Source of the DNA: an uncultured Muribaculaceae bacterium
GTDB lineage: Bacteria > Bacillota_I > Bacilli_A > RF39 > UBA660
DNA length: 36,234 bases
Assembly: GCA_964523265.1 (NCBI GenBank)
Contig: CAZFXQ010000005.1
Span: 1-36,234 of the forward strand
Direction of reading: 5' to 3'
Positions 7,497 through 23,762 of this stretch are shown here, in pieces. Below the pieces are notes generated by a model. The model was not told the origin of the DNA. It saw only the letters and a list, made by a program, of their open reading frames with translations, and ran no database searches. The translations under genes were made by a program, and so were the position numbers. Within the stretch, counting starts at the first letter, position 1; each line of letters opens with the position of its first letter.

Positions 7497-8060
7497 ATGA
7501 AAAAGTTAGATAATAATACTATATTAGTTGATGAAGAAGATTATTTAAATAAATTTAAGAGTTTAAAGAAGAAAAAGTATATTAAATATATATTAAAAAC
7601 TAATATTAAAAATAACGAAGAATTAAATGCTTTTGTTAAGGCGTTTAACTATAAAGATTTAAAAAAAAGATATGAATATATATATGATTATATGTGTAAT
7701 TATTTAGATAAAAATGTATGTGTTTTATGTGATTTTAAGGATAATAAGTGTATTGGTAACAGGCTTAAAACTTCTGTTCATGAAAAAGATGGATGTTGTT
7801 ATTTTAGAAAAGATGGGTTTTGTGAATTTTTTGACGGAAAAAAATGTGTTAATCCTAATATTACATGCAAACTTTTTATGTGTTGTGCTGCTGAAAAAAA
7901 GCTAGGATATGAATCTGTATGTAATAATTATTTGCTTCTTAATTTTTTCTTTAATAATGTTCAAAAAGAAATTTTAGAGCACAGTTATAAAAAGAAAAAA
8001 GAGTATACAATTGATTTACTTCTTAAGAATACAAATAGTTTACTTTTTATTAGAAAATAG
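7497..8060 (+). CDS. Cys-rich protein of unknown function, paralog B of the 1689..2315 product
   Basis: 187 aa. Signature C-x6-C-x14-CC-x7-C-x7-C-x6-C-K-L-x2-C, aligning with ORF 1689..2315. Same gaggtagttatg start context. Confidence 0.75.
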   Translation: MKKLDNNTILVDEEDYLNKFKSLKKKKYIKYILKTNIKNNEELNAFVKAFNYKDLKKRYEYIYDYMCNYLDKNVCVLCDFKDNKCIGNRLKTSVHEKDGCCYFRKDGFCEFFDGKKCVNPNITCKLFMCCAAEKKLGYESVCNNYLLLNFFFNNVQKEILEHSYKKKKEYTIDLLLKNTNSLLFIRK

Positions 8061-8091
8061 ATATAATTTACTTAATGAAGGGAATGTTTTT

Positions 8092-9186
8092 ATGAAAAAA
8101 ATTTTAGAATTTATAAAAGAAAAATCATATTATCTTTTAGGCGCAACGGTACTCATTTTAGTGTTAGCAGTAGCGATAGCTTCTTGCTCAAAAGGTGGTG
8201 AACCAAAAAGCTATGATCAAATTGAAAATATTGTGGTTGAAGCAGCTGAAAAATATTATGAACAGAAAAGTGATTTGTTACCAACTAAAGAGGGCGAAAG
8301 TGTAAGAGTGAATGTTGGAACTTTAATTGAGGCAAATTTGTTATCTGAAATATATGATCCAAACGATAAGTCTAATAAATGTAATGGATATGTGGATGTT
8401 ATTAAAATTGTTAACACATATTCATATATGCCATATTTGAATTGTCCGGGTAATTATGAACCTGAATATTTAGCTGACAAAATAAAGAATTCTACATTAG
8501 ATGAATATGGTAATGGTGTTTATGAAATGAATGGTGAGTATGTATACAGGGGTGATGATGTTAAAAATTATGTTATTTTTGCCAATCAAGTATGGAGAAT
8601 AATTAAAGTCGATAAACAAGGAGATATAGAAATTGTTTTAGCGGATGAGCAAAATTACAATAGAGCAGAATGGGATACATCATATAATCCAGAAATAGGT
8701 AGAAGCTATGGAAAAACCACTGATTATTTACATACAAGCATTAGGAGAAGCTTACAAGCATATTATGATGAAGTGTTAGATGATTTTTCAAGATCAAGGA
8801 TAGTACCTAAAAATATATGTGTTGGTCCAAAACAGTTTGATGCAAAAGAAAATGAAGATGAAGAGTGTTCTGTAATAAAAGAAAATGAATATGTTAGTTT
8901 ATTAAGAGTTAGTGATTATCCAAAAGCTAGTTTAGATAGTGGATGTACTATATATAGTGCACTGGAATGTACAAATAGAAACTATTTTGCGATAACAGGC
9001 AGTATTAATACATGGTTATTAACTAGAGTATTAGATAATTCATATGAGGTATATACTTTAGCAGGTGGTATAGATTATGATCAGGCTTACAGGAATAAAA
9101 AAATATGTCCAGTGGTATATTTATCAAAAAGCGTTATAGTTTCAAGTGGTGATGGTAGCTATGATGATAATTATATAATAAAATAA
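8092..9186 (+). CDS. exported lipoprotein or membrane-anchored protein of unknown function
   Basis: The ORF track begins at 8011. ATG 8092 follows GAAGGGAA and gives MKKILEFIKEK plus a hydrophobic helix and lipobox IASC. The extracytoplasmic body has several Cys and an NYVIFANQVWRIIKVDKQGDIEIVL motif. Confidence 0.7.
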   Translation: MKKILEFIKEKSYYLLGATVLILVLAVAIASCSKGGEPKSYDQIENIVVEAAEKYYEQKSDLLPTKEGESVRVNVGTLIEANLLSEIYDPNDKSNKCNGYVDVIKIVNTYSYMPYLNCPGNYEPEYLADKIKNSTLDEYGNGVYEMNGEYVYRGDDVKNYVIFANQVWRIIKVDKQGDIEIVLADEQNYNRAEWDTSYNPEIGRSYGKTTDYLHTSIRRSLQAYYDEVLDDFSRSRIVPKNICVGPKQFDAKENEDEECSVIKENEYVSLLRVSDYPKASLDSGCTIYSALECTNRNYFAITGSINTWLLTRVLDNSYEVYTLAGGIDYDQAYRNKKICPVVYLSKSVIVSSGDGSYDDNYIIK

Positions 9187-9195
9187 TTAATTTTG

Positions 9196-9224
9196 TTGAC
9201 AAAATAAATAAATTGATATACAAT
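9196..9224 (+). promoter_or_regulatory. near-consensus promoter for the small pilin-like gene
   Basis: TTGACA (9196-9201), a 17-nt spacer, then TACAAT (9219-9224). AGGAGG RBS lies before ATG 9251. Confidence 0.55.
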
Positions 9225-9250
9225 TCTTATGTAGAGTTAGGAGGATTTTT

Positions 9251-9637: not shown

Positions 9638-9649
9638 AATTAATAGTTA

Positions 9650-9678
9650 AAAAAGAGTTCATATTGTGAACTTTTTTT
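9650..9678 (+). terminator. Rho-independent terminator
   Basis: agttca (9656-9661) pairs with tgaact (9667-9672), extended by A/T pairs, followed by a T7 run. Confidence 0.5.
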
Positions 9679-9757
9679 CATTTTATATAAAAAATATGTT
9701 TTAATTATCTTAAAAAAATGTTATCATTATAGTAAGTATAGTAGATGAGGTGTTTGT

Positions 9758-10621
9758 ATGAGAAAATTAAGTAAGCTGGTACTATTTATGATATTTGTAA
9801 TGTTTGTTGTTACTAATAAGGTAATAGCAGATACTTGTGTTGGTAAAATTACTGAAAGTGAAAGAAGTGGTAGCCAGGTTAAGGAAACTGTTACATGGAA
9901 TTGTGATGATCCAAAATATCAGAATACTTGTAACTTTAATATAGAAATCGAAGATACAAAATTTATACTTTCTTTTTATTGTAGTAATGGTAAATTAGGA
10001 AGTGCAACAATATATCCTTCTGATGTTTCAGATTGTAGTGAAGTGGGTACAGGATGGCGTGTTATGGGCGGAAAATCCAAGTTGGATAGAACAGAGTTAG
10101 ATGTTAGAACGTATGATAAGGAATTTTCACCAGATAAATACTATTTGCTTAATATTAGCCCAAAAGCGAAAATATTACCATATGGTTTGTGCATAAGCTT
10201 TGGATCTCCTGTTATACCTGGTACAACGACGAATCCAGGTGAAACAACAAAATCTGTTGGAATATCAAGTGGAACTAATACAGGAGCTAGTGTAACAAAA
10301 AAAACAAAGGTGAATCCTGATCATCCTAATTTGTCTACTTATAAAACAAATACGTTAGCAGAGCCAAGTAATATTTGTACTCAAGAAGTCAAAGATAAGG
10401 CCCACTACTATTGGGCATATATTATGGTAATGGCGCCAATAGGTTTAATGATATTGATATCTGTTGATTTCGTTAAAGCTATTACATCAGGTAAACCAGA
10501 TGCTTTAAAGAAAAGTGGTAATGATGCTGTTAAAAGAGCAATTGCTTGTATTATATTACTTATGTTACCATTTTTATTAGGTACTATATTTAGTTGGTTT
10601 AGTATGAATTTCTGTTTTTAA
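9758..10621 (+). CDS. secreted Cys-rich domain fused to a pilin-like two-helix C-terminal domain
   Basis: Signal peptide (MRKLSKLVLFMIFVMFVVTNKVIA/DT). About 140 aa with multiple Cys, then a Thr/Gly/Pro-rich linker. The C-terminus APIGLMILISVDFVKAITSGKPDALKKSGNDAVKRAIACIILLMLPFLL aligns with ORF 9251..9637. Confidence 0.6.
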   Translation: MRKLSKLVLFMIFVMFVVTNKVIADTCVGKITESERSGSQVKETVTWNCDDPKYQNTCNFNIEIEDTKFILSFYCSNGKLGSATIYPSDVSDCSEVGTGWRVMGGKSKLDRTELDVRTYDKEFSPDKYYLLNISPKAKILPYGLCISFGSPVIPGTTTNPGETTKSVGISSGTNTGASVTKKTKVNPDHPNLSTYKTNTLAEPSNICTQEVKDKAHYYWAYIMVMAPIGLMILISVDFVKAITSGKPDALKKSGNDAVKRAIACIILLMLPFLLGTIFSWFSMNFCF

Positions 10622-10636
10622 GGTTGGTGATTTAAC

Positions 10637-13624
10637 TTGAATATATTATTTAGTTGGCTATCAATACCTAGAATGATTGGTATATGGATAGATTCTATAG
10701 CTTTTTCATTGATTGATAATGCTTATAATTTGATTGTATTTTTTGCAGGAAAAAAACTTTTTGCAGATGGTACCGTAAGTAAAATAATAAGTAGTACTTA
10801 TGTTGTAATTGCATTATTTGCATTATTTAGGCTTGCGTTATTACTTATTAATGCAATGATTTCACCTGATAGATTATATGATTCTAAAAATGGTATTGTT
10901 AAAATTGGTCTTAATGTAGTTATAATGTTTGTACTATTAGTTATTACACCTTTACTTTTTAGTGAAGCAAGGGATTTACAAGAATTTATTGTAAAAGAAA
11001 ATTTTATTGGTAAGATGTTTGGATTGGGTGTTACTAGCTTTGGGACTTATGTCGATGATGATGATGATCCGAGTACACCAGCACCAACAGCGGATGAATA
11101 TAATCCCGGTATTATAATGCAAAAAATGGTAATTAGTGCATTAATATATCCGGATGAAAGATTAGTGAATGATGATGGTACACCAAATGGTGAATGTACC
11201 GGAAAATGTGATGATATTGTTACTGATTACAAAGATATGATGGATGGTGATTATAAAGTTGATTATGGGTGGTTATCTAGAAAAATAACGGTATCTGTAG
11301 ATGTTGGTGATGAAGAGGTTTACGTACTACATTATTACTTCATAGTAACACTTGCTGTTGCTGGATTTATTGCATATATATTATTTTCATTTGCAATTGA
11401 TATTGCTGTTCGTAGTGTAGAACTCGCAGTTTTAGAGATATTATCACCACTTTTTATAGTAACATATATAGATCCTAAGTCTGCTAAATCAGGGCCATTT
11501 CATAATTGGCTTACGACAGTTGGTAAAACATATGTTAGTTTATTTATAAAACTGGCCATAGTTTCAATTATGCTTGTATTAATAACACTAGTTGAAGACA
11601 TAGATTTATCTGGTGGAGGATTGTTAGCAAAAATAATAATGATTTTCGCGATATTAATATTTGCTAAAAAAGCACCAACCTGGATATCTAATATGATAGG
11701 AATTAAAGATAGCGAAGGATTAGGTGGACTTAATATTGGTAAAAAACTAGCTGGAGCTGCTTTAATAGGTGGTGCAGCACAAAATGCATTAAATAAAGGA
11801 AAGAATGCGTTAGCAGGGGCGGGGTTAGGTTTAGCTAAAAATGCTCATGCATATAGAAAAGCAAAGAAAAGTCAATTAAGTGATTCTGATGATAGAGCGA
11901 TGGATAGAGTTAAGTCTAGATATCATGATAATCGTGAAAGTTCAGGTAGAATAAAATCAGCACTATCTGCTGTTGGACAATCATATTTTAAAGATGCTGG
12001 AAAAAATATGAAAAATTGGGGTAGTACATTTGCAGCAGGAGCTGCAGGAGCTTTAACAGGAATCACTTCTGGAGCAAAGAGCGGTTATGAATCAAAGGAT
12101 ATAAAAGATATTAATTCTAAAACTAAAGCTACGGCAAAAGCTGCTGTTGAAAGATATGCTCCTGGATATCAATCAATACCATCAAGAGCAGCAGAAAAAG
12201 CAGGAGATGTTATAAATAAAGTTGCTAATGCGCCATTTGGTGGTGCGACTGCTGTTGAAGACCAGCTTCAAGAAGCAAGGAAGAAGAAAGCTGCAAACGA
12301 AAAAGCTAAAGCATATTTTCCTGGATTTAAAGTTGATAGTAACGGAGAAAGAAATAAAATTCAAAATCCAGTTAAAGTTAGTGAGGCAAAAGCCGTTGTT
12401 GATAAAGTTAATGCTGATGCATTAAAAGGAACAGGAATTAAATTTTCAAGTTCTGCAAAAGAAGGTATTGTTGGTGCAATGGCTGTAAGTAGATTAACGA
12501 AAAATTCAGATGGAACATTTAGTTATAATGGACAATCTGTATCACTTTCAAGTGATGGTATAAGTGTTAATGGTGGTCCAAAGATGTCTTATTCTGATTT
12601 CTGCAAGAACAATAACATAATGAGTGTAGCAGGAGAAAGATTTGCTGAATCATGTTCTCGTGAAATTGCGACTCAAAACCTAACTAGATATGATTCAAAT
12701 ATAAAAGAAATTGCATCAAAGAAAGAACTTGCTGCACAAGCTGAACAACAAATATTAAGTTTCCAAGCTAATATGAAAGCAACTCGTGGTGATGCAGCAT
12801 ATGAAAGTTTATTAAGATTAGATGCAGCTCAAAAAGCAAATGTTGGAAGTTCTATTACTAATAACACTCAATATATGAATGCAAAAAATAACCTTGTTAC
12901 AGGTTTTGGTAATGAAATGATAAATGCTGAAAGTAATCTAGATAGTGCAATGAAAGCATTAGTTACAGCAAGATCATCTGGAGCTACTAAAGAACAAATT
13001 ACTGAGTTGGAAAACAATGTTAATGTAGCAACAGAAGAAAGAAATAAAGTAAGATTAAATATATCAAGAGAAAATCAAATGGAGATTGAAAAATTCCAGG
13101 CGGATTTAACGTCAGCTCGTTCTTCTGGAGCTACTCAAGAACAAATTACGGAAATTGAAAACAACTTGAAAGCTGCTACAGAAAAGAGTGATAAATTTAA
13201 AACTTTAGTTAAAGAAGTGGATGCATATGAGGAATTAAATGGTTATACAGATGCGAGTGGTGTAGAATTAAAAGTAGGTGCAATCAAGGCTGTTGATAGT
13301 ATTCCAGGTGTTCAACAAGGAACTGCACAAGCATATATGAGAGTTACTGCAACCAGAGATGATGCAAATAATAAGGTTTCAGAACTTACTGAAGAAAGCG
13401 AAAAAATTAAAGATGAAATTATTACTGATCTTGAAAATAATGGTGATAAATCAGCTTATAGACCTGAAGATTATGATGGAACTGTGCTTGAAGCCTTTGT
13501 TAAGGATGCAAGAGGTAATTATGTTGTAAATCCAGAATTTTCTCGTGTTATATCAGCAGCTAGTACACAAGAATCTAAAGCTAAAGAAGCTTTGAGTAAA
13601 GCAACAGAAAAGGATAAGAAATAG
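10637..13624 (+). CDS. VirB6/TrbL-like polytopic T4SS channel protein with a roughly 630-aa hydrophilic coiled-coil extension
   Basis: TTG start after GGTTGGTGA. The N-terminal 350 aa or so contain at least 6 hydrophobic helices. The remainder is Ala/Lys/Glu/Ser-rich with an internal repeat. It sits directly upstream of VirB3/VirB4-like genes, as TcpH, PrgH and Orf15 do in Gram-positive T4SS. Confidence 0.6.
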   Translation: MNILFSWLSIPRMIGIWIDSIAFSLIDNAYNLIVFFAGKKLFADGTVSKIISSTYVVIALFALFRLALLLINAMISPDRLYDSKNGIVKIGLNVVIMFVLLVITPLLFSEARDLQEFIVKENFIGKMFGLGVTSFGTYVDDDDDPSTPAPTADEYNPGIIMQKMVISALIYPDERLVNDDGTPNGECTGKCDDIVTDYKDMMDGDYKVDYGWLSRKITVSVDVGDEEVYVLHYYFIVTLAVAGFIAYILFSFAIDIAVRSVELAVLEILSPLFIVTYIDPKSAKSGPFHNWLTTVGKTYVSLFIKLAIVSIMLVLITLVEDIDLSGGGLLAKIIMIFAILIFAKKAPTWISNMIGIKDSEGLGGLNIGKKLAGAALIGGAAQNALNKGKNALAGAGLGLAKNAHAYRKAKKSQLSDSDDRAMDRVKSRYHDNRESSGRIKSALSAVGQSYFKDAGKNMKNWGSTFAAGAAGALTGITSGAKSGYESKDIKDINSKTKATAKAAVERYAPGYQSIPSRAAEKAGDVINKVANAPFGGATAVEDQLQEARKKKAANEKAKAYFPGFKVDSNGERNKIQNPVKVSEAKAVVDKVNADALKGTGIKFSSSAKEGIVGAMAVSRLTKNSDGTFSYNGQSVSLSSDGISVNGGPKMSYSDFCKNNNIMSVAGERFAESCSREIATQNLTRYDSNIKEIASKKELAAQAEQQILSFQANMKATRGDAAYESLLRLDAAQKANVGSSITNNTQYMNAKNNLVTGFGNEMINAESNLDSAMKALVTARSSGATKEQITELENNVNVATEERNKVRLNISRENQMEIEKFQADLTSARSSGATQEQITEIENNLKAATEKSDKFKTLVKEVDAYEELNGYTDASGVELKVGAIKAVDSIPGVQQGTAQAYMRVTATRDDANNKVSELTEESEKIKDEIITDLENNGDKSAYRPEDYDGTVLEAFVKDARGNYVVNPEFSRVISAASTQESKAKEALSKATEKDKK
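12968..13189 (+). repeat. intragenic direct repeat (two 75-nt copies, 147-nt period)
   Basis: 12968-13042 encodes ARSSGATKEQITELENNVNVATEER and 13115-13189 encodes ARSSGATQEQITEIENNLKAATEKS. Confidence 0.8.
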
Positions 13625-13638
13625 GAAGGGGATAAAGT

Positions 13639-13953
13639 ATGAATCAATATTTAATAGCAGCTAATTCTAAAAAAGGGCAATTGATATTTAGTATATTTAG
13701 AAAAATTGATTTGATAATAGCTTTGGTAGGAGCAGGAACAACATTTATATTATTTTTAATATTTGAACCTTCCTCTTTATCATCTGGAATAATTGTGTTG
13801 TTACCACTTTTGGTGTGTACAACGCTTGTTATGCCAATACCTAATTATCATAATGTATTATGTGTACTTAAAAACATATATAATTTTTACTTTGTTGATA
13901 AGAATCAATTAGTATGGAAAGGATGGTGTGCTAAAGATGAGTACAAAGAATAG
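13639..13953 (+). CDS. small 2-TM protein, VirB3/PrgI-like
   Basis: 104 aa with two adjacent hydrophobic helices. It lies immediately upstream of and overlaps the VirB4 genes. GGAAGGGG RBS. Confidence 0.5.
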   Translation: MNQYLIAANSKKGQLIFSIFRKIDLIIALVGAGTTFILFLIFEPSSLSSGIIVLLPLLVCTTLVMPIPNYHNVLCVLKNIYNFYFVDKNQLVWKGWCAKDEYKE

Positions 13954-14476
13954 TGTAAATACAGAAAGTTTTGTTCCAATAAAATCAATTGAGAATAATA
14001 TGATTAATCTTGATAGTGGTTTTATGGTAGCGGGTGTTAAGGTTGCTCCTAAAAACATATTTATATTAGATGAAGGTGACATGTTTGGTGTTATTGATGG
14101 ATTAAAGGATTTTTATAATACGCTTGATTTTGAATTTTGGTTAGTAGTTGCAGATAGACCTGTTGATATATCAGTTTATATTGCAGAACTTCAAATGATG
14201 TATAACAAGTCACAAAATCCAGTTATTCGAAAACTAATAAATCAGGATCTTAAAAAAGCAGACGATTTTAGTGATAATGTTTCTGATATTGAATTTTATT
14301 TCTTATTCAAGGATAAAAATCTTGAACTAATAAACAAGAAAGTAAGACTTATGATAAATGGGCTTGCAAATGCGGGATTATCATCTAGTCAAGCTAATAA
14401 TGAAGATTTAAGAAGTATACTTGAGAATTTCTTGAATGGTGGATTAAAAACTGAATTTGGGACGGTGTTAGCATAA
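13928..14476 (+). CDS. VirB4 N-terminal-domain protein (first half of a split VirB4)
   Basis: FVPIKSIENNMINLDSGFMVAGVKVAPKNIFILDEGDMFGVIDGLKDFYNTLDFEFWLVVADRPVDISVYI follows the N-terminal pattern of Gram-positive VirB4s (PrgJ/TcpF/Orf16-type). The track start is GTG 13928; ATG 13937 is an alternative. Its stop overlaps the next start (TAATG). Confidence 0.6.
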   Translation: MLKMSTKNSVNTESFVPIKSIENNMINLDSGFMVAGVKVAPKNIFILDEGDMFGVIDGLKDFYNTLDFEFWLVVADRPVDISVYIAELQMMYNKSQNPVIRKLINQDLKKADDFSDNVSDIEFYFLFKDKNLELINKKVRLMINGLANAGLSSSQANNEDLRSILENFLNGGLKTEFGTVLA

Positions 14477-16269
14477 TGGCAAATAATATAAAAAAGGAGC
14501 TAGCTCCTAAAGGTCTAGAATTTAAACCAGCAGAATTTGTTATAAGTGATAAATGGTGTACTATTTTAACCGTAGTTTCATTTCCAAAATGGATATCACC
14601 TGGTTTTTTAGCAGGTATTACTAATACACCAGGTGTAAAAATGGTTATTAAACATATTCAATTACCATTTTCAGTCATGTCTAAAATGCTTAACAAACAA
14701 TTAACTGATTTAAGAGTTCAATATGAAAAAGAAAATGATAAAACATATCAAGAACAATTAAGACAAGATTATGATTCATTAAATGATTTTATTCAAATGA
14801 TTACGGCTAATCAAGCTAGAATATTTGATTTTCAAATGCACTTATTTATTTCTGCGGATTCTAAAGAAGAATTAGAACAGAAAAAAGTACAAATGAAAAA
14901 TTACCTAATTTCTATGGAAATGAGAGCAATACCATTAAGGTTTGAGCAAAGAAAAGTATTAAAATCAATACTTCCTATCTTTCCAAAACAAGATATTGAA
15001 GATCAAATAGGTACTCCTATTACATCTCCAACGGTTGCAGCTATGTATCCTTTTATATTTGATAGTTTAAAAGATCCAGGGCCATCTTGCCTTCTTGGTA
15101 CAGATTTTTCTGGAGGTGTTGTTTTATTTAATCAATTCTTATATCAAACAAGAAAAGAGTTTAATAGAACTAATGCTAATATGATTATTTTAGGTACAAC
15201 AGGATCAGGTAAATCAACTGCGGCTAAATTACTTTTAAGAACACATATTAGAAATGAATATAAAGTTGTTGCAATAGATCCTGAAGGTGAGCTTGAAGAA
15301 ATGGTAGCTCGTATGCAGGGTGATTTCATTGATTTAGGTAAGGGTGGACAATATGGTATGATTAATCCACTTGAAGTAATACTTGAAGCTGATGATGAGG
15401 AAATAAAAGATGGATTAGGATATACAGTTCTTACGAAAACATTACAGTTTTTAAAGGCATTCATGAAGTATTATGATCCAACTATAACTGAAGATGTACT
15501 TACAATGTTTAGTGAAATAGCTCAATTAACTTATCAACGTTTTGGTATTTCTTTTGAAAGTGATTTTTCAAGTTTTACCCCAGATCAATATCCAACATTT
15601 TCAGATCTTTATGAAACTTTGGTTAGAAGACTTGAAGCATATGGTGATCAATTAACACACGAAAGAAATATACTTGAGACGCTAGAACTTAAAATAAGAC
15701 CTTTGGTTAAAGAATTGAAATTCTATTTTGATGGACATACAACGATAAGACCAACTACTAAATTTATTGTTTTTAATATAAGAGATTTAATGAATGCTGA
15801 TGAAAATATCAGAAATGCATTGTTCTTTAATATATTAAAATATGCATGGTCACATTGTTTAGATAGAACAATTAATACAATACTTATGGTAGATGAGGCA
15901 CATATATTATTATCTGGTAATAACACAATAGGAGCAGATTTCTTGGCACAAATACAAAGACGTGCTAGAAAGTATAATAGTGGTACAATATTTATTACTC
16001 AACAACCATCAGATTTTGCAGAGCCTAGTGTAATAACTCAAGGTAAAGCAATATTTGATAATGCATCATATTATCTTATTATGGGACTTAAGAAACAGGG
16101 GGCAGAGGATTTATCAAAATTAATTGATTTAAATGATCAAGAAAAAGAAAGTATTAAGAAATATAATCAAGGTGAAGCATTACTTGTTTGTGGAGCTAGA
16201 AGAATGCGTATTGATGTTATTGTTACAGAAGCAGAACTTGATTCATTTGGTTCTGGTGGAGGATTATAA
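14476..16269 (+). CDS. virB4: VirB4-family T4SS ATPase (C-terminal two thirds)
   Basis: LAPKGLEFKPAEFVISDKWCTILTVVSFPKWISPGFL (VirB4 middle region). Walker A GTTGSGKST and Walker B LMVDEAH. IFITQQPSDF distal motif. Confidence 0.85.
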   Translation: MANNIKKELAPKGLEFKPAEFVISDKWCTILTVVSFPKWISPGFLAGITNTPGVKMVIKHIQLPFSVMSKMLNKQLTDLRVQYEKENDKTYQEQLRQDYDSLNDFIQMITANQARIFDFQMHLFISADSKEELEQKKVQMKNYLISMEMRAIPLRFEQRKVLKSILPIFPKQDIEDQIGTPITSPTVAAMYPFIFDSLKDPGPSCLLGTDFSGGVVLFNQFLYQTRKEFNRTNANMIILGTTGSGKSTAAKLLLRTHIRNEYKVVAIDPEGELEEMVARMQGDFIDLGKGGQYGMINPLEVILEADDEEIKDGLGYTVLTKTLQFLKAFMKYYDPTITEDVLTMFSEIAQLTYQRFGISFESDFSSFTPDQYPTFSDLYETLVRRLEAYGDQLTHERNILETLELKIRPLVKELKFYFDGHTTIRPTTKFIVFNIRDLMNADENIRNALFFNILKYAWSHCLDRTINTILMVDEAHILLSGNNTIGADFLAQIQRRARKYNSGTIFITQQPSDFAEPSVITQGKAIFDNASYYLIMGLKKQGAEDLSKLIDLNDQEKESIKKYNQGEALLVCGARRMRIDVIVTEAELDSFGSGGGL

Positions 16270-16316: not shown

Positions 16317-16327
16317 GACAATAAATG

Positions 16328-16336: not shown

Positions 16337-16361
16337 TTTGTTATATTAGGTGGTGTAAATT

Positions 16362-19300
16362 GTGGATAACAAAAAATTTGATGATGATTTAATTGATGTA
16401 AGTGATAAAAAAGATATTAATATTGATATTGATATAAATGTTAATAAGTCCAATAATTTTAAAAATAATTATAATTTACCTAAAAGCGAAACAAATATAT
16501 CTAAACATGATAATTCACAAAGTGGTTTTCAAAATAATAGACCAATTAATCCATATAATAATTCTGGAATAAATAAGTTGAATGATAATAAGAAATTAAG
16601 TAGCTTGAATAATAGGGGTGTTAATAATCAAAGAAAACCGTTTAATAATAATCTGGGTAGTAGATTAAATAATATAAATGATCAAAATAATGTTGATCAA
16701 AAAAGTAATCAGAATAATAATGGTTTTAAAAATAATAATGTTAATGATAGGGGTTTAAAACAAGGGGTAAATAGTGCAGCAGACAGAATAAGAAATGCTC
16801 CTCAAAATATTAAAGATAAAATTAATGATACAAAAGACAAAGTTAATAATACTAAAGAAAAAATTAAAAATACGTCAGAAAACGTAAAGAATAAAGCAAA
16901 TAACGCAAAGGAAAAATGGAACAATAGACCAAAGAGTTTTAATGAGTTTAAAGATAGGGCAAAAAGCAGTTTTAAAAATGCTGGTCCAAAATTAGCAGAT
17001 AAAGCTAAGCAAGGTGTAAAAAAAACAGGTCAAAAAGCATTAGATGAAGTAAAAGATACAGCAAAAGAGAAAGTAGAAAGTTCTAGTTTAGGACAAGCTG
17101 TTAATAAAACTAAAGATGTTATTGATAAAACAAAACACACAGTTGAAGTAACAAAAAAAGCATTTAAAGCAATAATTACTTTTTTAAAAGCTACATTTCC
17201 ATGGCTCGAAATTATACTTGTTATATTGCTATTCATATTTGCAGTAATAATGTTAGTTAATTACTTATTTCCTGGGTTGTTTGGTGATGTAAAAAAAGAT
17301 GATGAGTATGATAATTATGCTGATGTTGATCAAAAAACATTAGAAAAAATGAAAGATGTATTTAATAAGCATTCTAGCGAAGATGCTACGCTTGCTATGG
17401 CAACAGTTGTGTTTCCGTATTATACACAGTTGCATGATGGTAACGTTTCTAGTTATTTGACAACAACAGATAATGAAGATAGTGGTGAAGAAGATCCGGA
17501 AGTAGATGTTGAAGAAGAATTTGATGGAGATGATGTTGAAAAGGATGAAGGTGACCAAGAAGCTGATGATATGTATTTGTTACCATTTAGAAATAGTAAG
17601 GTAAGAAAAAGATTGGGTGATGTATTAGATGCATTGGATGGTGGTCAAGATTCTTGGGAAAGCTATTTGAAAGATAAGTATTTTAAAAACGATAAAGGGT
17701 TTAAAAAGGAATTTGATGAAAAAGTTATAACAGGATATAACGGATATAAAAAATTGTTTGAGGCACAAATAGATGATGCTTATGAAGATAATCTTGAAGA
17801 TGCTATAATTAAGAATTTACAAGATATTAAAGATTTCTTTTTACCATATATATTTGATCTTGAATATTTAATATGTTCATCTGAATCTACTAATATTGGT
17901 TATAGTGATGCTGGTGGGATAATCCAAGGTGAAGCTTATGTTATTATAAAAGATACAGGTGTTGGAAATCCATTTAGTACTCTTAAAAACGCACCAGATT
18001 TACATGGTACAGGTAGCGATCCATTAACTTTAAAAAGGTACGTAATGGGTGTATCATATGCTGAAATTGGTGACGAAGTAAAAAATGAACATGCTGCAAA
18101 GGCAGACATGATAGCTTCTAAAAGTTTTGTTTTGGGTAGAATAGCTTCAGGTGCACCAAATTCTGTTGGTATGGGATATAAATATGATGTAAAAGACGGG
18201 AAAACATACTTTTATATGAGAGGTAATACTTCAGATCAAGATTTTTGTGATATATATGAAGGTTGTAAAACTGGTAGATTTGCTAAAAGTAATATTAAGT
18301 CTACATCAAGTTTTGCTCAAGAAAGTAAGAAGAATGTAAAAGATCCACTTCCTGCTGAAGATATAGCTAATTTGGAAAAATGGTATGATGAGGTAGCTGG
18401 TGAATTTATTTACAATGAAAGTATGAAAGCGTTTGGTGGTTCACAATATGATACATTTAATAAAAATTGTGTTAAGGGTTATTGTTTATCTCAAAAGTTT
18501 GCAAGTAAATTAGCAAAGCAAGGTCATGATTATAAATATATTTTATATGATAGTATAAATGGAGCATTTAGTAGAGGTTATGTTGTATATAATATGGAAA
18601 CTCAACAATTATCAGTGTCATCTACTAATTGTGTAGAAAAATTAGCAGGTGGTTGTTCAATTGCATCGGAAGATTTTATATATTATTCACAAAGACAATA
18701 TAATGATGCAAATGTTGGTTATTGTGGAAGGGTTGATCCATCAGCAGAAGAACCACCAACAATAAGCACAAGTGGTTGTGGAGTAACTTCTATGGCTATG
18801 ATTATTTCTAATTTAACAGATGAGAAGCTTGATCCTTTAGCTACAATGAATGAAGCGGCTAACGCTTCATCCCCAGGACCATATTGTGGTGAAGGAATAG
18901 TTGGTACAAAACCAGAGTATTATAGATATTCTGCTAGTAAACATGGTATAACATATTCATCAGTTTTATCAACAGCAGAAGATGCAGAAGAAAAAGTAAA
19001 AACCACGCTAAACTCTGGTGGACTTGTTATTGCTAATGTAGGAAAAGGATGGCAACGAAAGGATCAAGGACCTGTTGAAGTAGGACATTATTTGGTTATA
19101 CGAGGTGTGGCTGGAGATGGTAGTTTACTTTTAGCAGATCCTATGCTTAAAGAAGCATCTTTAGATCCAACTGATTTAATTTCTTTTGCTGATATTGTTT
19201 CATTTATGAAAGATAAAGAAAGATATTTCTTCTTATTTACAAGTGCTAAATCAGACGAAATAAAAGAAAAATATTGTGGTCTTTCGGTAACTGGTGAACC

Positions 19301-19820
19301 AGGTGTTGCAACAGGGCATTTAGGTAATCCATTAGATCCTAATGATACAACCAGGGATTTTTCAAAAGAACCATGTCGTATGGGTGGAATTCTTTATAGT
19401 TCTGCTACAGCATTTCCTAGATATTGTAGTGGTAATCCACATGGAGGCGTTGATTTGAGTTATGTTGTAACTGGAACACCAATTTATGCAATGGATGGTG
19501 GTGTAGTTAGTGCGTCTAATGATGAAACAGGTTGGGGTAAACACATTATAATAGACCATGGTAATGGACATCATACGGTATATGCTCATTTTAGTAGTCG
19601 TTCGGTTCAAAAAGGTGAGAATGTTGCTAAGGGTCAATTAATTGGTTATAGTGGAAATAGTGGTAATTCAACAGGAGAACATTTGCACATTGAGTTATGG
19701 AATGATTCTTTATATAGCAAAAATGGTAGAGATGCAGGTAAGTATAGTGAAGGAAAGGGATTAATGAATCCAACTAAATATATAAATTCTAGCACAAGTT
19801 ATGTTGGACAAACTCGATAG
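16362..19820 (+). CDS. T4SS-associated multi-domain peptidoglycan hydrolase (C39-like cysteine peptidase plus M23 metallopeptidase, possibly SpoIID-like)
   Basis: GTG start after AGGTGGTG. About 270 aa of Asn/Lys-rich low complexity precede one TM helix (about 17170-17270). An acidic stretch follows. LKRYVMGVSYAEIGDEVKNEHAAKADMIASKSFVLGR is tentatively SpoIID-like. SGCGVTSMAMIISNL ... VGHYLVIRG is a C39-like Cys/His pair. M23 motifs are HGGVD (19439-) and GEHLHIELW (about 19678-19701). Confidence 0.85.
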   Translation: MDNKKFDDDLIDVSDKKDINIDIDINVNKSNNFKNNYNLPKSETNISKHDNSQSGFQNNRPINPYNNSGINKLNDNKKLSSLNNRGVNNQRKPFNNNLGSRLNNINDQNNVDQKSNQNNNGFKNNNVNDRGLKQGVNSAADRIRNAPQNIKDKINDTKDKVNNTKEKIKNTSENVKNKANNAKEKWNNRPKSFNEFKDRAKSSFKNAGPKLADKAKQGVKKTGQKALDEVKDTAKEKVESSSLGQAVNKTKDVIDKTKHTVEVTKKAFKAIITFLKATFPWLEIILVILLFIFAVIMLVNYLFPGLFGDVKKDDEYDNYADVDQKTLEKMKDVFNKHSSEDATLAMATVVFPYYTQLHDGNVSSYLTTTDNEDSGEEDPEVDVEEEFDGDDVEKDEGDQEADDMYLLPFRNSKVRKRLGDVLDALDGGQDSWESYLKDKYFKNDKGFKKEFDEKVITGYNGYKKLFEAQIDDAYEDNLEDAIIKNLQDIKDFFLPYIFDLEYLICSSESTNIGYSDAGGIIQGEAYVIIKDTGVGNPFSTLKNAPDLHGTGSDPLTLKRYVMGVSYAEIGDEVKNEHAAKADMIASKSFVLGRIASGAPNSVGMGYKYDVKDGKTYFYMRGNTSDQDFCDIYEGCKTGRFAKSNIKSTSSFAQESKKNVKDPLPAEDIANLEKWYDEVAGEFIYNESMKAFGGSQYDTFNKNCVKGYCLSQKFASKLAKQGHDYKYILYDSINGAFSRGYVVYNMETQQLSVSSTNCVEKLAGGCSIASEDFIYYSQRQYNDANVGYCGRVDPSAEEPPTISTSGCGVTSMAMIISNLTDEKLDPLATMNEAANASSPGPYCGEGIVGTKPEYYRYSASKHGITYSSVLSTAEDAEEKVKTTLNSGGLVIANVGKGWQRKDQGPVEVGHYLVIRGVAGDGSLLLADPMLKEASLDPTDLISFADIVSFMKDKERYFFLFTSAKSDEIKEKYCGLSVTGEPGVATGHLGNPLDPNDTTRDFSKEPCRMGGILYSSATAFPRYCSGNPHGGVDLSYVVTGTPIYAMDGGVVSASNDETGWGKHIIIDHGNGHHTVYAHFSSRSVQKGENVAKGQLIGYSGNSGNSTGEHLHIELWNDSLYSKNGRDAGKYSEGKGLMNPTKYINSSTSYVGQTR

Positions 19821-19855
19821 TTGGACTTATATAAATAGAAGGGTAGGATAATTAT

Positions 19856-20575
19856 ATGAGTAATATAAAAAAAATTATAATATTATTGTGCCTTATAGTT
19901 TTGACTGGTTGCGCTGTTGATGCTGAATATACAGTAAGAGATGACGGAACAACCTTAGAAAGTGCATATCTATATGAATATAATAATGAAATATATAAAT
20001 ATGGAGATAGTGTAGATGAGTATATTGATAGTAAAATGATATATAACAATGGACTTACATTTGAAGAATTTAGTAATACATATGAAGGTAATTATGGATA
20101 TGAAAAAGTTTTAAATTCTGATACATCTGGAATTAATCTTTCAAAAGACTACAAAAATATATGTTCTGCATTTAATAATACTTATTTTAAGTTTTTCTTT
20201 GATGAGATTAACTGTGAAGTAGTTGATAACAAATATAAATTATCTGCAAAAGGTTCTTATTTTGTGTGTGAAGATGATTGTGGTGACTACGGTGAGGTTG
20301 ATGAAGCTAACATAAAAATAAATTTGCCAAATAAAGCAAAAAAACAAAATGCTGATGAAGTGGTAGAAGAAAATACTTATATTTGGCATTTTGATAACAG
20401 CAAAGATCAAGTGCTAGAATTGGAATTTAAAATAAATGATGCTAATAGTAATAATAAAAACAATATTAATTTGGTAAAAACGATTGTAATATTGATATTA
20501 GTGGTGTTAGTTATTGGTATATTAGTTGGATTTGTATTATATAATAAATATAAGAATAACAAATTAGATTATTAA
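19856..20575 (+). CDS. lipoprotein with a C-terminal TM anchor, paralog 1
   Basis: Lipobox LTGC. Cys-containing ectodomain, then a C-terminal helix IVILILVVLVIGILVGFVLY and tail NKYKNNKLDY. Paralogous to the next ORF. Confidence 0.75.
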   Translation: MSNIKKIIILLCLIVLTGCAVDAEYTVRDDGTTLESAYLYEYNNEIYKYGDSVDEYIDSKMIYNNGLTFEEFSNTYEGNYGYEKVLNSDTSGINLSKDYKNICSAFNNTYFKFFFDEINCEVVDNKYKLSAKGSYFVCEDDCGDYGEVDEANIKINLPNKAKKQNADEVVEENTYIWHFDNSKDQVLELEFKINDANSNNKNNINLVKTIVILILVVLVIGILVGFVLYNKYKNNKLDY

Positions 20576-20584
20576 GGAGGAATT

Positions 20585-21295
20585 ATGAAAAAAATTAAAG
20601 TTTTAATTTTAGCTTTATTATTGATTTTATTATGTGGTTGTACTGCGAAAGAAAATATAGTAATGGATGATTATGGAAAAATATCACAAAAAGTAGTAAT
20701 TCCTCTTGAAAATAATAATATGACTGAAAAAGAATTTGCCAATTATGTAACTAATATTTTAAAACCATATAATAAAGCTTTAAGTTATAGAAATTATAAA
20801 ACTGCTATTGTTTATGATAAAGATTATGGTAATATTGTATTTACTAATAAATTTAAAAGTATTTGTTCATATATTGAAAAAACAGTTTTTAGTCAGTATA
20901 TGTATAAATTTGTAAAATGTTATGAAGATGAGAATTATATTGAAATAAAAAATGAAAGTGAGCATATTGCTTATTGTTCTGATTGTACAACTTGGCCTAA
21001 ATTTGACGATGTACAATACAGTATTTCACTACCTGTTAAAGCATTAGAATCTAATGCAGATACAGTAGATGGTACCACATATACATGGCAATTTGATAAA
21101 AATAGTGATAAAGATAAAAGTTTTTATTTGAAGATTAGTAAAAAAGATTTAGATGAAAATTTAGCAAGGTTAAAAAAAATTGAACAAATAAAAAAGATCG
21201 CTATTATACTATTAAGTGTTTTATTTGTTATTGGGCTTGGCCTTATTGCCATGAGGTTGTATAAAAAGAATAAGAATAACAAGTTAGATTATTAA
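20585..21295 (+). CDS. lipoprotein with a C-terminal TM anchor, paralog 2
   Basis: Lipobox LCGC. C-terminal helix AIILLSVLFVIGLGLIAMRLY and tail KKNKNNKLDY. Shares the (N/T)TY(I/T)W(H/Q)FD and LP(N/V)KA motifs with ORF 19856. Confidence 0.75.
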   Translation: MKKIKVLILALLLILLCGCTAKENIVMDDYGKISQKVVIPLENNNMTEKEFANYVTNILKPYNKALSYRNYKTAIVYDKDYGNIVFTNKFKSICSYIEKTVFSQYMYKFVKCYEDENYIEIKNESEHIAYCSDCTTWPKFDDVQYSISLPVKALESNADTVDGTTYTWQFDKNSDKDKSFYLKISKKDLDENLARLKKIEQIKKIAIILLSVLFVIGLGLIAMRLYKKNKNNKLDY

Positions 21296-21304
21296 AAAAA
21301 ATAT

Positions 21305-21331
21305 ATACCAAATATTTGAAATATTTGGTAT
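21305..21331. promoter_or_regulatory. 27-bp perfect palindrome overlapping an extended -10 (operator and/or terminator)
   Basis: ataccaaatattt-g-aaatatttggtat. Its right arm contains TGgTATAAT (21326-21334), 40 nt upstream of the coupling-protein ATG. Confidence 0.55.
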
Positions 21332-21373
21332 AATATTTTTGAGTTTAACTAGTTGTGATAAGGAGGCTTTGTT

Positions 21374-23734
21374 ATGAAGCTAAAATTTAGAGCGGAAAAG
21401 AAGGATATAATTGCCTTTTTATGGGGTTGTTTACTACTTTTAATGGTTGTTTCAATGATAGTTGTTAATTTGTATCATGCAACTGATGAATCAACTGGTG
21501 TAAATGAAAACACAAGATGGACATTTAATTTTATAAAGGGATTATTTCCACCTTATTTACCATATACAATTTTATTTTGGGTTATTGCTATAATAGCAGT
21601 ATTCGCTAGTTTATCTTCATACTTTTTTGAAAGAGAAAAAGGATTTGGATTTAAAGAAGGTAAAGAAGAAAAAGGATTTGGTAGATTTGCCAAAGAAGAT
21701 GAATACAAAAAATTTGAAAATGTAAAATCTGTTGAATTAACTGCCAAAGAGGCAACAGCGGCAGGGTTCCCATTAGTTTACGATAAGAAAAAGGGATTAG
21801 TATACGTTGATGATGGTGAATCTCATTCACTTGTAATAGGTGCAACAGGTTCTGGTAAAACGCAAATGGTTATTAATCCTTTAGTTAATTATTTAGCTAA
21901 AAAGGGTGAATCAATGGTTATTACTGACCCTAAAGGTGAGATATACGAAAAAAATGGAGAAATGTTAAAAGATAAGGGTTATGATGTTATAGTTGTTAAC
22001 TTTCGTGATCCACAAAATGGTAGTTGTTGGAATCCATATACACTTCCTTATAAATATTATAAAGAAGGTAACCAAGATAAAGCAAATGAGTTGTTAAATG
22101 ATATGGCTATAAACATTGCATCAGATGAAAAGGCTGATGATCCATTTTGGACTAATTCAGCAGCAGATTATTTAACAGGTTTATCACTTGGTATGTTTGA
22201 GGATGCTTCTGAAGATGAAATTAGTATTTCAACAGTTAACTTAATGATGACTGTTGGTGATGAAAAAATGGGGGGTTCTACTTACTTAAAAGAGTATTTT
22301 AGAATGAAAGACCCTGCATCACCAGCAGCAATTAACGCACTTGGTACAATAAATGCACCTCAAGATACTAAAAACTCAATAGATTCAGTTTTAAAGCAAA
22401 AAATAAAAGTTTTTGCAGTAACTCAAAACTTATCTGAAATGTTATCTAGAAGTGATTTTGATATGGAAACTATAGGAGAAAGAAAAACTGCTATTTTTAT
22501 GATAATACAAGATGAAAAAACAACATATCATGCACTTGCTACAATATTTGTTAAACAATGTTATGAGTCTTTAATTGCTGTTGCTCAAAGACATGGAGGA
22601 AAACTTCCTATTAGAACTAATTTTTTGCTTGATGAGTTTGCTAATATGCCTAAATTCAAAGATATTACAACAATGATTACAGCGGCACGTTCAAGACAAA
22701 TAAGAATGACTATGATAGTACAAAACTTTGCACAGTTAAAACAAGTTTATGGTAATGAAGATGCCGAAACAATTCGTGGTAACTGTGGTGACATATTATA
22801 CTTACTTACTGGTGAATTATCAGCTTTAGAAGAAATTAGTAAACTATGTGGTGACAAGGTAGTTAAAGTTGGTAAGGATAAAAGAGAAGAAACAAGACCT
22901 TTAATTACAGTTACAGAACTTCAAAGATTTAAACAAAATGAAGTTTTAGTATTAAAGCATCGTCTTCCACCTCTTAGAACAAAGTTCTTGCCATTTTGGG
23001 ATACGGATCTAGGTTATGGAAAAAACGCAAGTAAAGTTCCTAAGGCAGAGCTTCCATCTCATGAGCAGATACCAATTAAATTATTTGATATAAGGGAGTT
23101 TGTAAAAAAGAAGAAAGAAGAACAAAGAAGTGGTATGTTTGGGGGAGATAGTCCATTTGGTAACCAAGGTGGTAATATGTTTGGTCCAAATCCTTTCGGT
23201 GGTGTACCTATGAGTCCATTTGGTAATAATAATTCTGGTATGGATTTTAAGCCATCTATTAATCCATTTGAGAATAATGGTAACATTAATCAAATGCCAA
23301 CTTCAAATCCATTTGAAAGTGGTAAATCACAATCAGATGATTTGGAAATAGATGATATTATTAAGAAAATTGATGAAAGAATAGCAGAACTTGAAAAAGA
23401 AGAAGAACAAAATAAGAGTAACTTAAGTAAAGAAAGTACATCAAATGAAGAATCAGACATAAACGATATGATTAAACCATCTAGTGTTGATAAAATAGAT
23501 TTCACTAATTTTTCAAATAATAAGCATGATATAATGGATGATTTTATGGAAGATTTATCAGATGATGATGAAGATGATACTTCTGTTGAATTAAAACCAG
23601 ATGAAACACAAGTGGATGCTACATTTATTCCAAAGAATAATGATCAAATAGTTTATAAAAACGAATCAGAAATAGATAAAATTATGAATGAAAAAGATGA
23701 AAATGATGATATTTTTGATGACTTTTTTGAGTAA
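21374..23734 (+). CDS. virD4: type IV coupling protein (VirD4/TraG family) with a disordered NPF/FG-rich and acidic C-terminal tail
   Basis: Two N-terminal TM helices. Walker A GATGSGKTQ and Walker B FLLDEFANMP. The tail from about nt 23107 is Gly/Asn/Pro/Phe-rich and then Asp/Glu-rich. Confidence 0.88.
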   Translation: MKLKFRAEKKDIIAFLWGCLLLLMVVSMIVVNLYHATDESTGVNENTRWTFNFIKGLFPPYLPYTILFWVIAIIAVFASLSSYFFEREKGFGFKEGKEEKGFGRFAKEDEYKKFENVKSVELTAKEATAAGFPLVYDKKKGLVYVDDGESHSLVIGATGSGKTQMVINPLVNYLAKKGESMVITDPKGEIYEKNGEMLKDKGYDVIVVNFRDPQNGSCWNPYTLPYKYYKEGNQDKANELLNDMAINIASDEKADDPFWTNSAADYLTGLSLGMFEDASEDEISISTVNLMMTVGDEKMGGSTYLKEYFRMKDPASPAAINALGTINAPQDTKNSIDSVLKQKIKVFAVTQNLSEMLSRSDFDMETIGERKTAIFMIIQDEKTTYHALATIFVKQCYESLIAVAQRHGGKLPIRTNFLLDEFANMPKFKDITTMITAARSRQIRMTMIVQNFAQLKQVYGNEDAETIRGNCGDILYLLTGELSALEEISKLCGDKVVKVGKDKREETRPLITVTELQRFKQNEVLVLKHRLPPLRTKFLPFWDTDLGYGKNASKVPKAELPSHEQIPIKLFDIREFVKKKKEEQRSGMFGGDSPFGNQGGNMFGPNPFGGVPMSPFGNNNSGMDFKPSINPFENNGNINQMPTSNPFESGKSQSDDLEIDDIIKKIDERIAELEKEEEQNKSNLSKESTSNEESDINDMIKPSSVDKIDFTNFSNNKHDIMDDFMEDLSDDDEDDTSVELKPDETQVDATFIPKNNDQIVYKNESEIDKIMNEKDENDDIFDDFFE

Positions 23735-23762
23735 AAGACACTTTATAAAGTGTCTTTTTTTC
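23733..23762 (+). terminator. Rho-independent terminator
   Basis: aaaagacacttta/taaagtgtctttt hairpin followed by a T-run. Confidence 0.7.

Follow-up and report, generated by a model that had tools for sequence, protein, structure and literature searches.

Nearly all functions known for the type IV secretion systems (T4SSs) of Gram-positive bacteria concern DNA transfer (PMC12857230). The T4SSs of Patescibacteria have been reviewed as unique among monoderms, non-conjugative and possibly pilus-forming, and according to the same 2025 review both VirB2-like pilins and non-conjugative, essential T4SSs are known in monoderms from Patescibacteria only (PMC12857230). These systems are chromosomal, relaxase-less and derived from the mating-pair formation (MPF) class FATA; they include TrsD, VirB3, VirB6 and arrays of VirB2, and are essential for epibiotic growth (PMC12102498; PMC12857230). 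Here we describe a T4SS locus in a stretch of 36,234 nucleotides (contig CAZFXQ010000005.1, positions 1 to 36,234 of the forward strand; hereafter the window) from an uncultured bacterium of the RF39 lineage UBA660. RF39 is an uncultured order that occurs in abundance in human, ruminant, poultry and rabbit guts; its members are reported to be unable to synthesise nucleotides de novo, and a dependence on other cells is suspected (PMC13155120). The literature search found no paper linking RF39 or RFN20 with a T4SS.

The conserved unit covers positions 6987–24052 of the window (Table 1) and is, by its predicted products, a Gram-positive-type, MPF-FATA-like T4SS, probably descended from a conjugative apparatus of that kind. 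Its descent appears to be vertical, with purifying selection acting strongly on it, and we lean with some confidence towards reading it as an exapted ("domesticated") system that would serve a non-conjugative, contact-dependent task between cells. A domesticated chromosomal T4SS was also one of two possibilities offered by an earlier, sequence-only reading of the window, and it is favoured here because of synteny, co-divergence with RmuC, saturated synonymous divergence, purifying selection and host-like composition at third codon positions.

In its set of features the locus has its closest analogue in the T4SS of Patescibacteria such as Southlakia epibionticum ML1, the resemblance being functional. 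Both would be monoderm systems derived from MPF-FATA, chromosomal and with no relaxase nearby. Both have a TrsD-like protein beside VirB4, together with VirB3 and VirB6, wall hydrolases (M23 included) downstream of virB4, and arrays of divergent VirB2-like pilins (PF18895), and also the hosts are alike in their reduced genomes and their suspected dependence on other cells. In contrast to Patescibacteria, the RF39 host belongs to Bacillota, VirD4 is adjacent to the other genes instead of usually distant as in the candidate phyla radiation (PMC12102498), and the RF39 pilins have a conserved cysteine pair and a linked thioredoxin lipoprotein, some of them being fused to large ectodomains.

Among the plasmids, pBMB68 of Bacillus thuringiensis (locus L092) has the nearest VirB4, only 30% identical. 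This MPF-FATA plasmid has in the same order a small two-helix transmembrane (TM) protein, a TrbL_4-type VirB6, PrgI, a TraC-like protein of 227 amino acids (aa), a VirB4 of about 600 aa and a wall hydrolase. Also its VirD4 belongs to the CD1115 family, and Tad-like genes (SAF–AAA–T2SSE) are present near its T4SS as in some of the more distant RF39 loci. Unlike the RF39 block, however, pBMB68 encodes a relaxase, MobP3, immediately 5' of VirD4. In RF39, VirD4 lies at the distal end of the block, VirB6 is three times longer, and pilin arrays, a thioredoxin and lipoproteins of LppM-like and novel predicted fold are added. The integrative and conjugative elements (ICEs) of Mycoplasma (Mbov_0396/0397; CDS16/CDS17, CDS5) provide the top NCBIfam models for VirB4 and the TrsD-like protein and, weakly, for VirB6, and they share with RF39 a Mollicutes-related host lineage and a minimal monoderm apparatus. 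They differ in being mobile with a DDE transposase (CDS22), a family with no match in the RF39 window, and in lacking VirB1-like hydrolases, whereas in RF39 hydrolases are prominent and VirB4 is split; the RF39 VirB4 reaches 350 bits against the equivalog cut-off of 590.

Single traits are shared also with other systems. The rvh T4SS of Rickettsiales is chromosomal, lineage-wide and relaxase-less, occurs in reduced genomes and has a duplicated or extended VirB6. Unlike the RF39 block, it belongs to the diderm MPF-T type, includes components in the outer membrane and has scattered genes, and its hosts are obligate intracellular bacteria of eukaryotes. Helicobacter pylori ComB is likewise a chromosomal, relaxase-less and non-conjugative T4SS, but it is a diderm system not known to include VirD4, which is well conserved in RF39. 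The "type IVC" T4SS of the Streptococcus suis 89K island (VirB1, B3, B4, B6, B8, D4), like the RF39 system of Gram-positive type, has been reported to secrete a protein effector (PMC12857230). It differs in its location on a mobile pathogenicity island or ICE, in the lack of VirB2-like pilins and in its distribution, one species instead of an order.

The presence of a T4SS module in the window, claimed in the sequence-only reading, was borne out by profile matches of VirB4, VirD4, VirB6 and the hydrolase. The Walker motifs and the HGGVD...HLH motif that it quoted are present in the translations, and the open reading frames (ORFs) that it named as VirB4 and VirD4 do match the corresponding profiles (AAA_10/VirB4_plasma and T4SS-DNA_transf/CD1115, respectively). 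VirD4 was matched in Pfam by T4SS-DNA_transf (4.6e-58), TrwB_AAD_bind and TraG-D_C, and with 317 bits it was above the cut-off of 250 bits for the NCBIfam model conju_CD1115; its C-terminal tail is long, acidic and of low complexity. The NCBIfam models matching VirB4 were VirB4_plasma (2.3e-104), CD1110 (5e-54) and VirB4_CagE (1e-23), the first of these, the Mycoplasma ICE model, being the best one with 350 bits and thus below its equivalog cut-off. In the PDB the ATPase matched 4ag5, a VirB4 C-terminal domain (2e-54). The best VirB4 models and plasmid matches, by profile and sequence comparison, were all from monoderms: the Mycoplasma ICE, CD1110, and plasmids of B. thuringiensis, Enterococcus and Staphylococcus. 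No family of the VirB7/9/10 outer-membrane core was matched by the window proteins in Pfam or NCBIfam.

The ORF overlapping the start of VirB4 matched positions 97–276 of the VirB4_plasma model (1.2e-15). Since it is homologous to the N-terminal part of VirB4, the protein is on these matches split into two genes, a TrsD/TraC-like one and the ATPase. The single VirB4 gene of the sequence-only reading was correct for the ATPase, the N-terminal part being in the separate ORF. The TrsD-like protein, with a precomputed TraC-like match (PF26593), is 50–84% identical across all loci. A split into TrsD and TrsE is known from the pGO1 subclass (PMC12102498). A frameshift artefact was ruled out, as the split is kept in all loci and fits this known arrangement. 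VirB6 was matched by TrbL_4 (3.4e-9) and, below cut-off, by the NCBIfam models pLS20_p028, MMCAP2_0566 and Mbov_0396. Its C-terminal extension of about 600 aa is hydrophilic and repeat-bearing, and an internal tandem repeat of 147 nucleotides (49 aa, ARSSGATxEQITExENN) is present at 12966–13195. The candidate for VirB3 is located directly 5' of the TrsD-like/VirB4 pair and has two predicted TM segments. Against PrgI of pBMB68 it gave an hhalign probability of 43% (E 2.5e-4), with the motif YLIPxNxK common to both, and none of the 61 RF39 homologues matched Pfam PrgI. The earlier VirB3/PrgI-like assignment was in this way supported by position, topology and a weak alignment but not by a Pfam match.

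The two-helix VirB2-like proteins reported before were recovered as a pilin family. The short pilin of the window matched PF18895 (T4SS_pilin) with 22.1 bits and E 1.6e-4, under the cut-off of 26.6, and has two predicted TM helices. Of the 146 homologues gathered from related loci, which have two to four pilin genes each, 54 matched PF18895 at E ≤1e-3, the best with 1.7e-8. The pilins occur in two forms, a short one of about 110–135 aa and a long one of 260–567 aa that is present in most loci; a long pilin of the far-clade locus L051 matched PF18895 over residues 278–344. The hairpin is flanked on its predicted outer side by two cysteines: C111, without variation, and C26, with a conservation of at least 90%. 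Because also the equivalent small gene of pBMB68 showed a weak PF18895 match (E 0.023), a small pilin-like gene may be ancestral to the pBMB68-type plasmid subclass, which tempers the novelty of the pilins. The thioredoxin lipoprotein keeps its position upstream across the near clade with 51–63% identity, and we infer that this PedC-like protein may oxidise the cysteine pair of the pilins and other Cys-rich surface proteins.

The hydrolase combines Peptidase_M23 (6e-27) and Peptidase_C39_2 (2.4e-8) domains with one predicted TM segment. A relationship of its M23 domain to SpoIIQ was ruled out, the scores against active M23 peptidases being far better. The two lipoproteins downstream of it, proposed already in the sequence-only reading, both have a lipobox and a C-terminal TM segment. 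They share the C-terminal sequence NKLDY and similar downstream DNA (20537–21316), and because of this their genes are indicated to be a local duplication. The second one was predicted by AlphaFold2 with pLDDT 84 and pTM 0.75, and its top Foldseek match was Mycobacterium tuberculosis LppM (2nc8; E 4e-6, TM-score 0.59). A VirB8/NTF2 fold was ruled out for it by this LppM-like prediction. The 366-aa lipoprotein upstream of the pilins (pLDDT 88, pTM 0.80) had no PDB match with E <0.5 for its predicted fold; its gene accompanies the T4SS in the near clade as well as at some far-clade loci.

The search with VirB4 found more than 7000 homologous proteins, the top 120 being 85–97% identical and located on contigs of up to 1.2 Mb. 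When each GTDB species was scanned with one genome, a relative was encoded in at least 463 of the species genomes. The best 80 of these were all metagenome-assembled genomes of uncultured gut "Bacilli", "Mollicutes" or "Tenericutes", and among them were two closed chromosomes (about 1.5 Mb), UBA660, Ca. Aphodocola and Ca. Coprosoma. The last two have been assigned to two families of the order RF39 (Gilroy et al., PMC8035907). In a search of representative proteins, VirB4 identity was 70% inside the clade, 41–44% in two rare proteins and at most 34% outside, where the named distant representatives were Thomasclavelia, Solobacterium and a Mycoplasmatota plasmid.

The gene order common to the loci is pilin(s), VirB6, VirB3-like, TrsD-like, VirB4, hydrolase(s), lipoproteins, VirD4, rhodanese, (VTT/DedA or YhcG) and RmuC, the rhodanese following immediately 3' of VirD4 in most near- and far-clade loci. 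Upstream, the context differs between the clades while the block itself stays alike. The near clade (VirB4 82–90% identical) has also the thioredoxin lipoprotein and the 366-aa lipoprotein, and the far clade (VirB4 about 70% identical) a Tad-like gene set. This set, consisting of a T2SSE ATPase, two membrane proteins of about 260–300 aa and proteins of about 78 aa (one), 160 aa (two) and 335 aa (one), lies directly 5' of the pilins and co-directional with them (L051 positions 1–4855; also L053, L060, L067 and L089). In many near-clade loci a YhcG PD-(D/E)XK nuclease is situated between the rhodanese and RmuC. In L051 (OZ007038.1, 105946–127724) and L053 (OZ007022.1, 78234–100012) no more than about 0.13 Mb separates the locus from the beginning of the record; if these closed records start at dnaA, the T4SS is origin-proximal in both, as has been reported for Patescibacteria (PMC12102498). 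SpoIID, SpoIIP, the germination protease and penicillin-binding proteins were seen among the neighbours in the flanks of loci L012–L091. Because of these sporulation families and penicillin-binding proteins, the RF39 genomes with the locus appear to be walled and possibly spore-forming.

The sequence-only reading had found no relaxase, recombinase, transposase or Rep gene in the 36 kb, and the scan of all window ORFs with 80 aa or more on the strand likely to be coding agrees: no family of relaxases, integrases/recombinases, transposases or Rep proteins was detected among them. Neither a tRNA nor an att-like flanking repeat was found in the window, the latter in line with the earlier failure to find direct repeats. 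Two further upstream genes, available from another assembly of the same organism, had no family and no relaxase or integrase signature. Among the recurrent neighbours in the 80 related loci (10 kb on each side) there was no relaxase, integrase or Rep family, and the 25 listed of the 88 rare neighbour families were housekeeping ones. The annotated contexts of the near clade likewise showed no relaxase.

These results bear on the other possibility offered in the sequence-only reading, that the block is the mating-pore module of a still mobile ICE or genomic island with its relaxase and integrase outside the window. In its favour, the raw GC content of the block (28–34%) is higher than that of its flanks (21–25%), the genes at 1–5013 are apparently species-specific, and the site between htpG and the rhodanese is polymorphic for presence of the block (L109, below). 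The difference in raw GC, however, lies in codon positions 1 and 2. At the third codon position the GC content (GC3) is 0.13–0.19 in the block and 0.10–0.15 in the flanks, so the raw difference is an effect of amino-acid composition, the codon-level composition matches the flanks, and the inference of foreign origin from raw GC was dropped. The earlier statement that composition matches the flanks holds in this sense for GC3 and not for raw GC. Integrase, att repeats and tRNA are missing from the window, the upstream flanks vary by clade with the block constant, and the same block occurs in varied upstream contexts in hundreds of species, with no relaxase or integrase among the recurrent neighbours within 10 kb in about 80 loci and none in the two further upstream genes of the window organism. 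The divergence data presented next also speak against a mobile ICE, and we regard this explanation as very improbable.

Pairwise identities of VirB4 and RmuC were correlated over 40 loci (Mantel r 0.87; reached by 0 of 2000 permutations). In no pair of loci did the identity of VirB4 exceed that of RmuC by much (0.15 at most). When compared with four near-clade relatives, the synonymous divergence (dS) was about 1 and saturated for the T4SS genes and RmuC alike. The ratio of nonsynonymous to synonymous divergence (dN/dS) was 0.07–0.10 for VirB4, 0.10–0.18 for VirD4 and 0.10–0.14 for RmuC. Evolution is fast in the surface parts, namely pilins, VirB6, hydrolase and lipoproteins (dN/dS 0.3–0.7, identity 24–55%), and a slow motor combined with fast surface parts fits an interaction with variable partners. 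The low ratios bear also on the possibility that the block is a functionless, decaying remnant of an integrated conjugative element. Such a remnant would have lost its relaxase and integration functions, as seen here, and insertion sequence transposases (DDE_Tnp_1_4 and rve) lie inside the T4SS cluster on the opposite strand in two relatives (L029, 18219–19499, minus strand; L037, 4758–5759, minus strand). Nevertheless the genes are without exception intact, both in the window and in dozens of species, VirB4 and VirD4 have dN/dS values as low as RmuC despite saturated dS, and consensus promoters are present as sequence matches; decay is hardly credible.

As a control, 49 related metagenome loci with enough upstream sequence were ascertained on RmuC instead of VirB4. 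VirD4 was found upstream of RmuC in 29 of them, and VirB4 in 26 of the 39 loci with at least 9.5 kb. About a third of the related RmuC loci are without the block at this site. No locus clearly without the block (minus locus) was closer than 82% in RmuC identity to a locus with it (plus locus), a further point against recent mobility, and the entire near clade was plus. An empty interval, which the sequence-only reading had suggested looking for in relatives, was found in L109 (23% GC), where htpG, Hsp20, rhodanese, VTT/DedA and RmuC follow each other at 6790–11014 with no T4SS between them. This looks like the empty-site counterpart of the htpG, thioredoxin, T4SS and rhodanese of the window, the block being by this comparison either an ancient insertion or lost in L109. 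Based on the plus/minus distribution together with this site, the block is best understood as an old insertion at a conserved chromosomal spot, which most RF39 lineages would have kept and some lost or moved.

For the domesticated system the following course may be proposed. A conjugative apparatus would have entered the chromosome upstream of rhodanese–RmuC in an RF39 ancestor, with the link to a relaxase lost later. The TrsD-like protein and VirB4, with VirB3, the extended VirB6 and also VirD4, would form the membrane translocon, and the TM-anchored C39/M23 hydrolase would open the wall locally. VirB4 would pull the VirB2-like pilins out of the membrane, their two outer cysteines being oxidised by the neighbouring thioredoxin/PedC-like lipoprotein, and the pilins could assemble into a short pilus or surface fibre on which the long pilin displays its variable ectodomain. 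The lipoproteins of novel and LppM-like fold might complete the surface complex. VirD4 would then recruit a substrate other than a relaxase, and contact-dependent transfer would carry this into an adjacent cell, belonging to a partner bacterium or to the host. The working mode would in this way be that of the relaxase-less, pilin-array T4SS of Patescibacteria and not conjugation.

The same domesticated locus could have DNA as its substrate, either exported or transferred to other cells or imported as a source of nucleotides or genes. Export could proceed as in the chromosomal transfer of Mycoplasma or the gonococcal genetic island (GGI) of Neisseria, with a relaxase elsewhere or a non-canonical nuclease (RmuC, YhcG); import would resemble ComB or Ced. 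In favour of DNA, VirD4 exceeds the cut-off of the conjugal CD1115 family, Mycoplasma ICE models give the top scores for VirB4 and VirB6, the linkage to RmuC is kept, and a YhcG nuclease is present in many near-clade loci. MOBC relaxases are restriction-endonuclease-like. MOBC was the most frequent relaxase class found in Patescibacteria (PMC12102498), and the lack of de novo nucleotide synthesis in RF39 (PMC13155120) would suit a nucleotide source. On the other side, DNA-uptake T4SSs such as ComB are not known to include VirD4. No relaxase was found among the recurrent neighbours within 10 kb in about 80 loci, RmuC is a widespread housekeeping gene and is in the window 5.2 kb of rnc–smc–def away from the block, and in S. 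epibionticum competence is separable from the essentiality of the T4SS (PMC12857230). We hold a DNA substrate to be possible, if clearly the less probable version.

Several points weigh against a domesticated T4SS of non-conjugative function. Because VirD4 belongs to the CD1115 family, annotated as conjugal, DNA is a plausible substrate, and the relaxase search around the relatives covered 10 kb on each side of each locus. RmuC, used as the marker of co-divergence, is physically linked to the block and so not an unlinked marker. This linkage is also not universal, VirD4 being missing in 20 of the 49 loci ascertained on RmuC; as the 17 clear minus loci are spread over about nine RmuC lineages, the block has undergone repeated loss or relocation, or else more than one gain. 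Of the components, VirB3 is weakly assigned by position, topology and hhalign match, and no VirB8-like protein of NTF2 fold (of the PrgL, TraM or TcpC kind) was found among the two folded lipoproteins. What is said here of a pilus, of a disulfide and of the direction of transfer is inferred.

In the window the plus-strand genes run co-directionally over 7497–24052, with one divergent gene at 6987–7406 (ORF listing and translation), and all T4SS genes lie on the strand with positive GC skew. The bounds of 7497–23762 given in the sequence-only reading had to be widened to those of the conserved unit at both ends. Its first gene, which had been counted among the twelve genes of the module, has a homologue at the same spot in only two of about 80 relatives (L027 and L029) and is apparently an accessory gene and not a conserved part of the T4SS; its Cys-rich paralogue at 1689–2315, about 30% identical, lies in the species-specific upstream region. 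The placement between htpG and rnc–smc, as described earlier, is correct for this species, the conserved neighbours being the rhodanese and RmuC. The flanks of the window species are rearranged, with 5.2 kb of rnc–smc–DUF4190–DUF2752–def between rhodanese and RmuC, and both junctions were confirmed by independent assemblies. The neighbours include HtpG, an NrtR-NUDIX protein, RNase III, SMC, deformylase, RmuC, YebC and several unknowns.

Table 1. Features of the T4SS locus and its neighbour RmuC in the window, with the evidence for each.
Feature	Position	Strand	Evidence
Thioredoxin/PedC-like lipoprotein, CSHC motif	6987..7406	-	Pfam Thioredoxin 3.8e-9; precomputed PedC-like match
Sigma-70-like promoter, perfect (TTGACA-18-TATAAT with TG), upstream of the first plus-strand gene	7450..7479	+	Consensus match only
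Cys-rich 187-aa protein, accessory	7497..8060	+	No Pfam family; paralogue of 1689-2315
366-aa surface lipoprotein, lipobox IASC and six more invariant Cys	8086..9186	+	Alignment of 41 homologues; AlphaFold2
Near-consensus promoter (TTGACA-17-TACAAT) ahead of the pilin gene	9196..9224	+	Consensus match only
Short VirB2-like pilin, 128 aa, two TM helices	9251..9637	+	Sub-threshold PF18895; TM prediction
Long pilin, 287 aa: signal peptide, Cys-rich ectodomain of about 200 aa, C-terminal VirB2-like two-helix module	9758..10621	+	Alignment to pilin family
Extended VirB6/TrbL-like polytopic channel protein	10637..13624	+	TrbL_4 3.4e-9; predicted TM segments
VirB3/PrgI-like small membrane protein (candidate), 104 aa, two TM	13639..13953	+	Position; TM prediction; weak hhalign match
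TrsD/TraC-like protein, 182 aa, putative detached VirB4 N-terminal domain	13928..14476	+	PF26593; part of VirB4_plasma model
VirB4 ATPase, Walker A GTTGSGKST, Walker B MVDEAH	14476..16269	+	AAA_10, P-loop_TraG, VirB4_plasma, 4ag5
Cell-wall hydrolase, 1152 aa: Asn-rich N-terminus, one TM, C39-like, M23	16362..19820	+	Pfam; VirB1/PrgK functional analogue
Lipoprotein with C-terminal TM anchor, paralogue of 20585..21295	19856..20575	+	Lipobox; TM prediction; alignment to the 236-aa lipoprotein
LppM-fold lipoprotein (lipo236) with C-terminal TM anchor	20585..21295	+	AlphaFold2 and Foldseek
VirD4-type coupling protein: two N-terminal TMs, GATGSGKT, LLDEFAN, acidic tail	21374..23734	+	Pfam, NCBIfam
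Single-domain rhodanese, downstream end marker of the block	23777..24052	+	Rhodanese 2.2e-6
RmuC, neighbour of the locus in relatives	29287..30354	+	RmuC 9.5e-55

Outside the block, the region at 1–5013, together with positions 1–2700 of locus L001, consists of co-directional genes (606, 304, 208, 193, 141 and 85 aa) without a family, followed by an NrtR-like protein with two NUDIX domains. Save for a weak match of the Cys-rich 208-aa gene, the flanking regions of the 80 related loci contained no equivalent of these genes, so the region appears specific to this species. Several ruminant metagenome contigs of the same organism break inside htpG (the ends of L001 and L093; about 5115–6953 in the window), suggestive of heterogeneous strains or of a problem in assembly; in the window itself htpG is intact. 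Two tandem paralogues of 450 and 459 aa, with internal S(I/L)NSKYHxEDM repeats and no Pfam or PADLOC family, are located at 31656–34399. PADLOC gave nothing meaningful for these, for the upstream genes without family or for the Cys-rich proteins. Near the contig end (34662–36234) the GC content rises from about 0.30 to 0.45–0.55, the serS ORF stops early at 35564, and the IscU/NifU_N gene at 35723–36100 has a GC3 of 0.54, compared with 0.10–0.19 elsewhere; by its composition this end would be either chimeric or recently acquired foreign DNA.

An exapted T4SS is of a known kind, and the RF39 lineage is a new and ecologically important one for it. A solution very similar to that of the Patescibacteria would here be present in a different phylum and conserved across RF39, as a natural case of a conjugation machine repurposed after relaxase loss. 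The T4SS genes could be traced in metatranscriptomes, the pilins and lipoproteins could serve as surface markers for fluorescence in situ hybridization or sorting, and partners could be sought by co-culture. If the locus moves chromosomal DNA, it would instead give gut Bacilli a new route for gene flow. More speculatively, and as a rather unlikely extension, RF39 might be a second major monoderm lineage, convergent with Patescibacteria, whose way of life with a reduced genome depends on a chromosomal, relaxase-less T4SS with VirB2-like pili for exchange with partner cells, for example in acquiring nucleic acids or building blocks. If this were true, the uncultured RF39 would be partner-dependent, in an epibiont-like manner, and the T4SS would be key to their cultivation.

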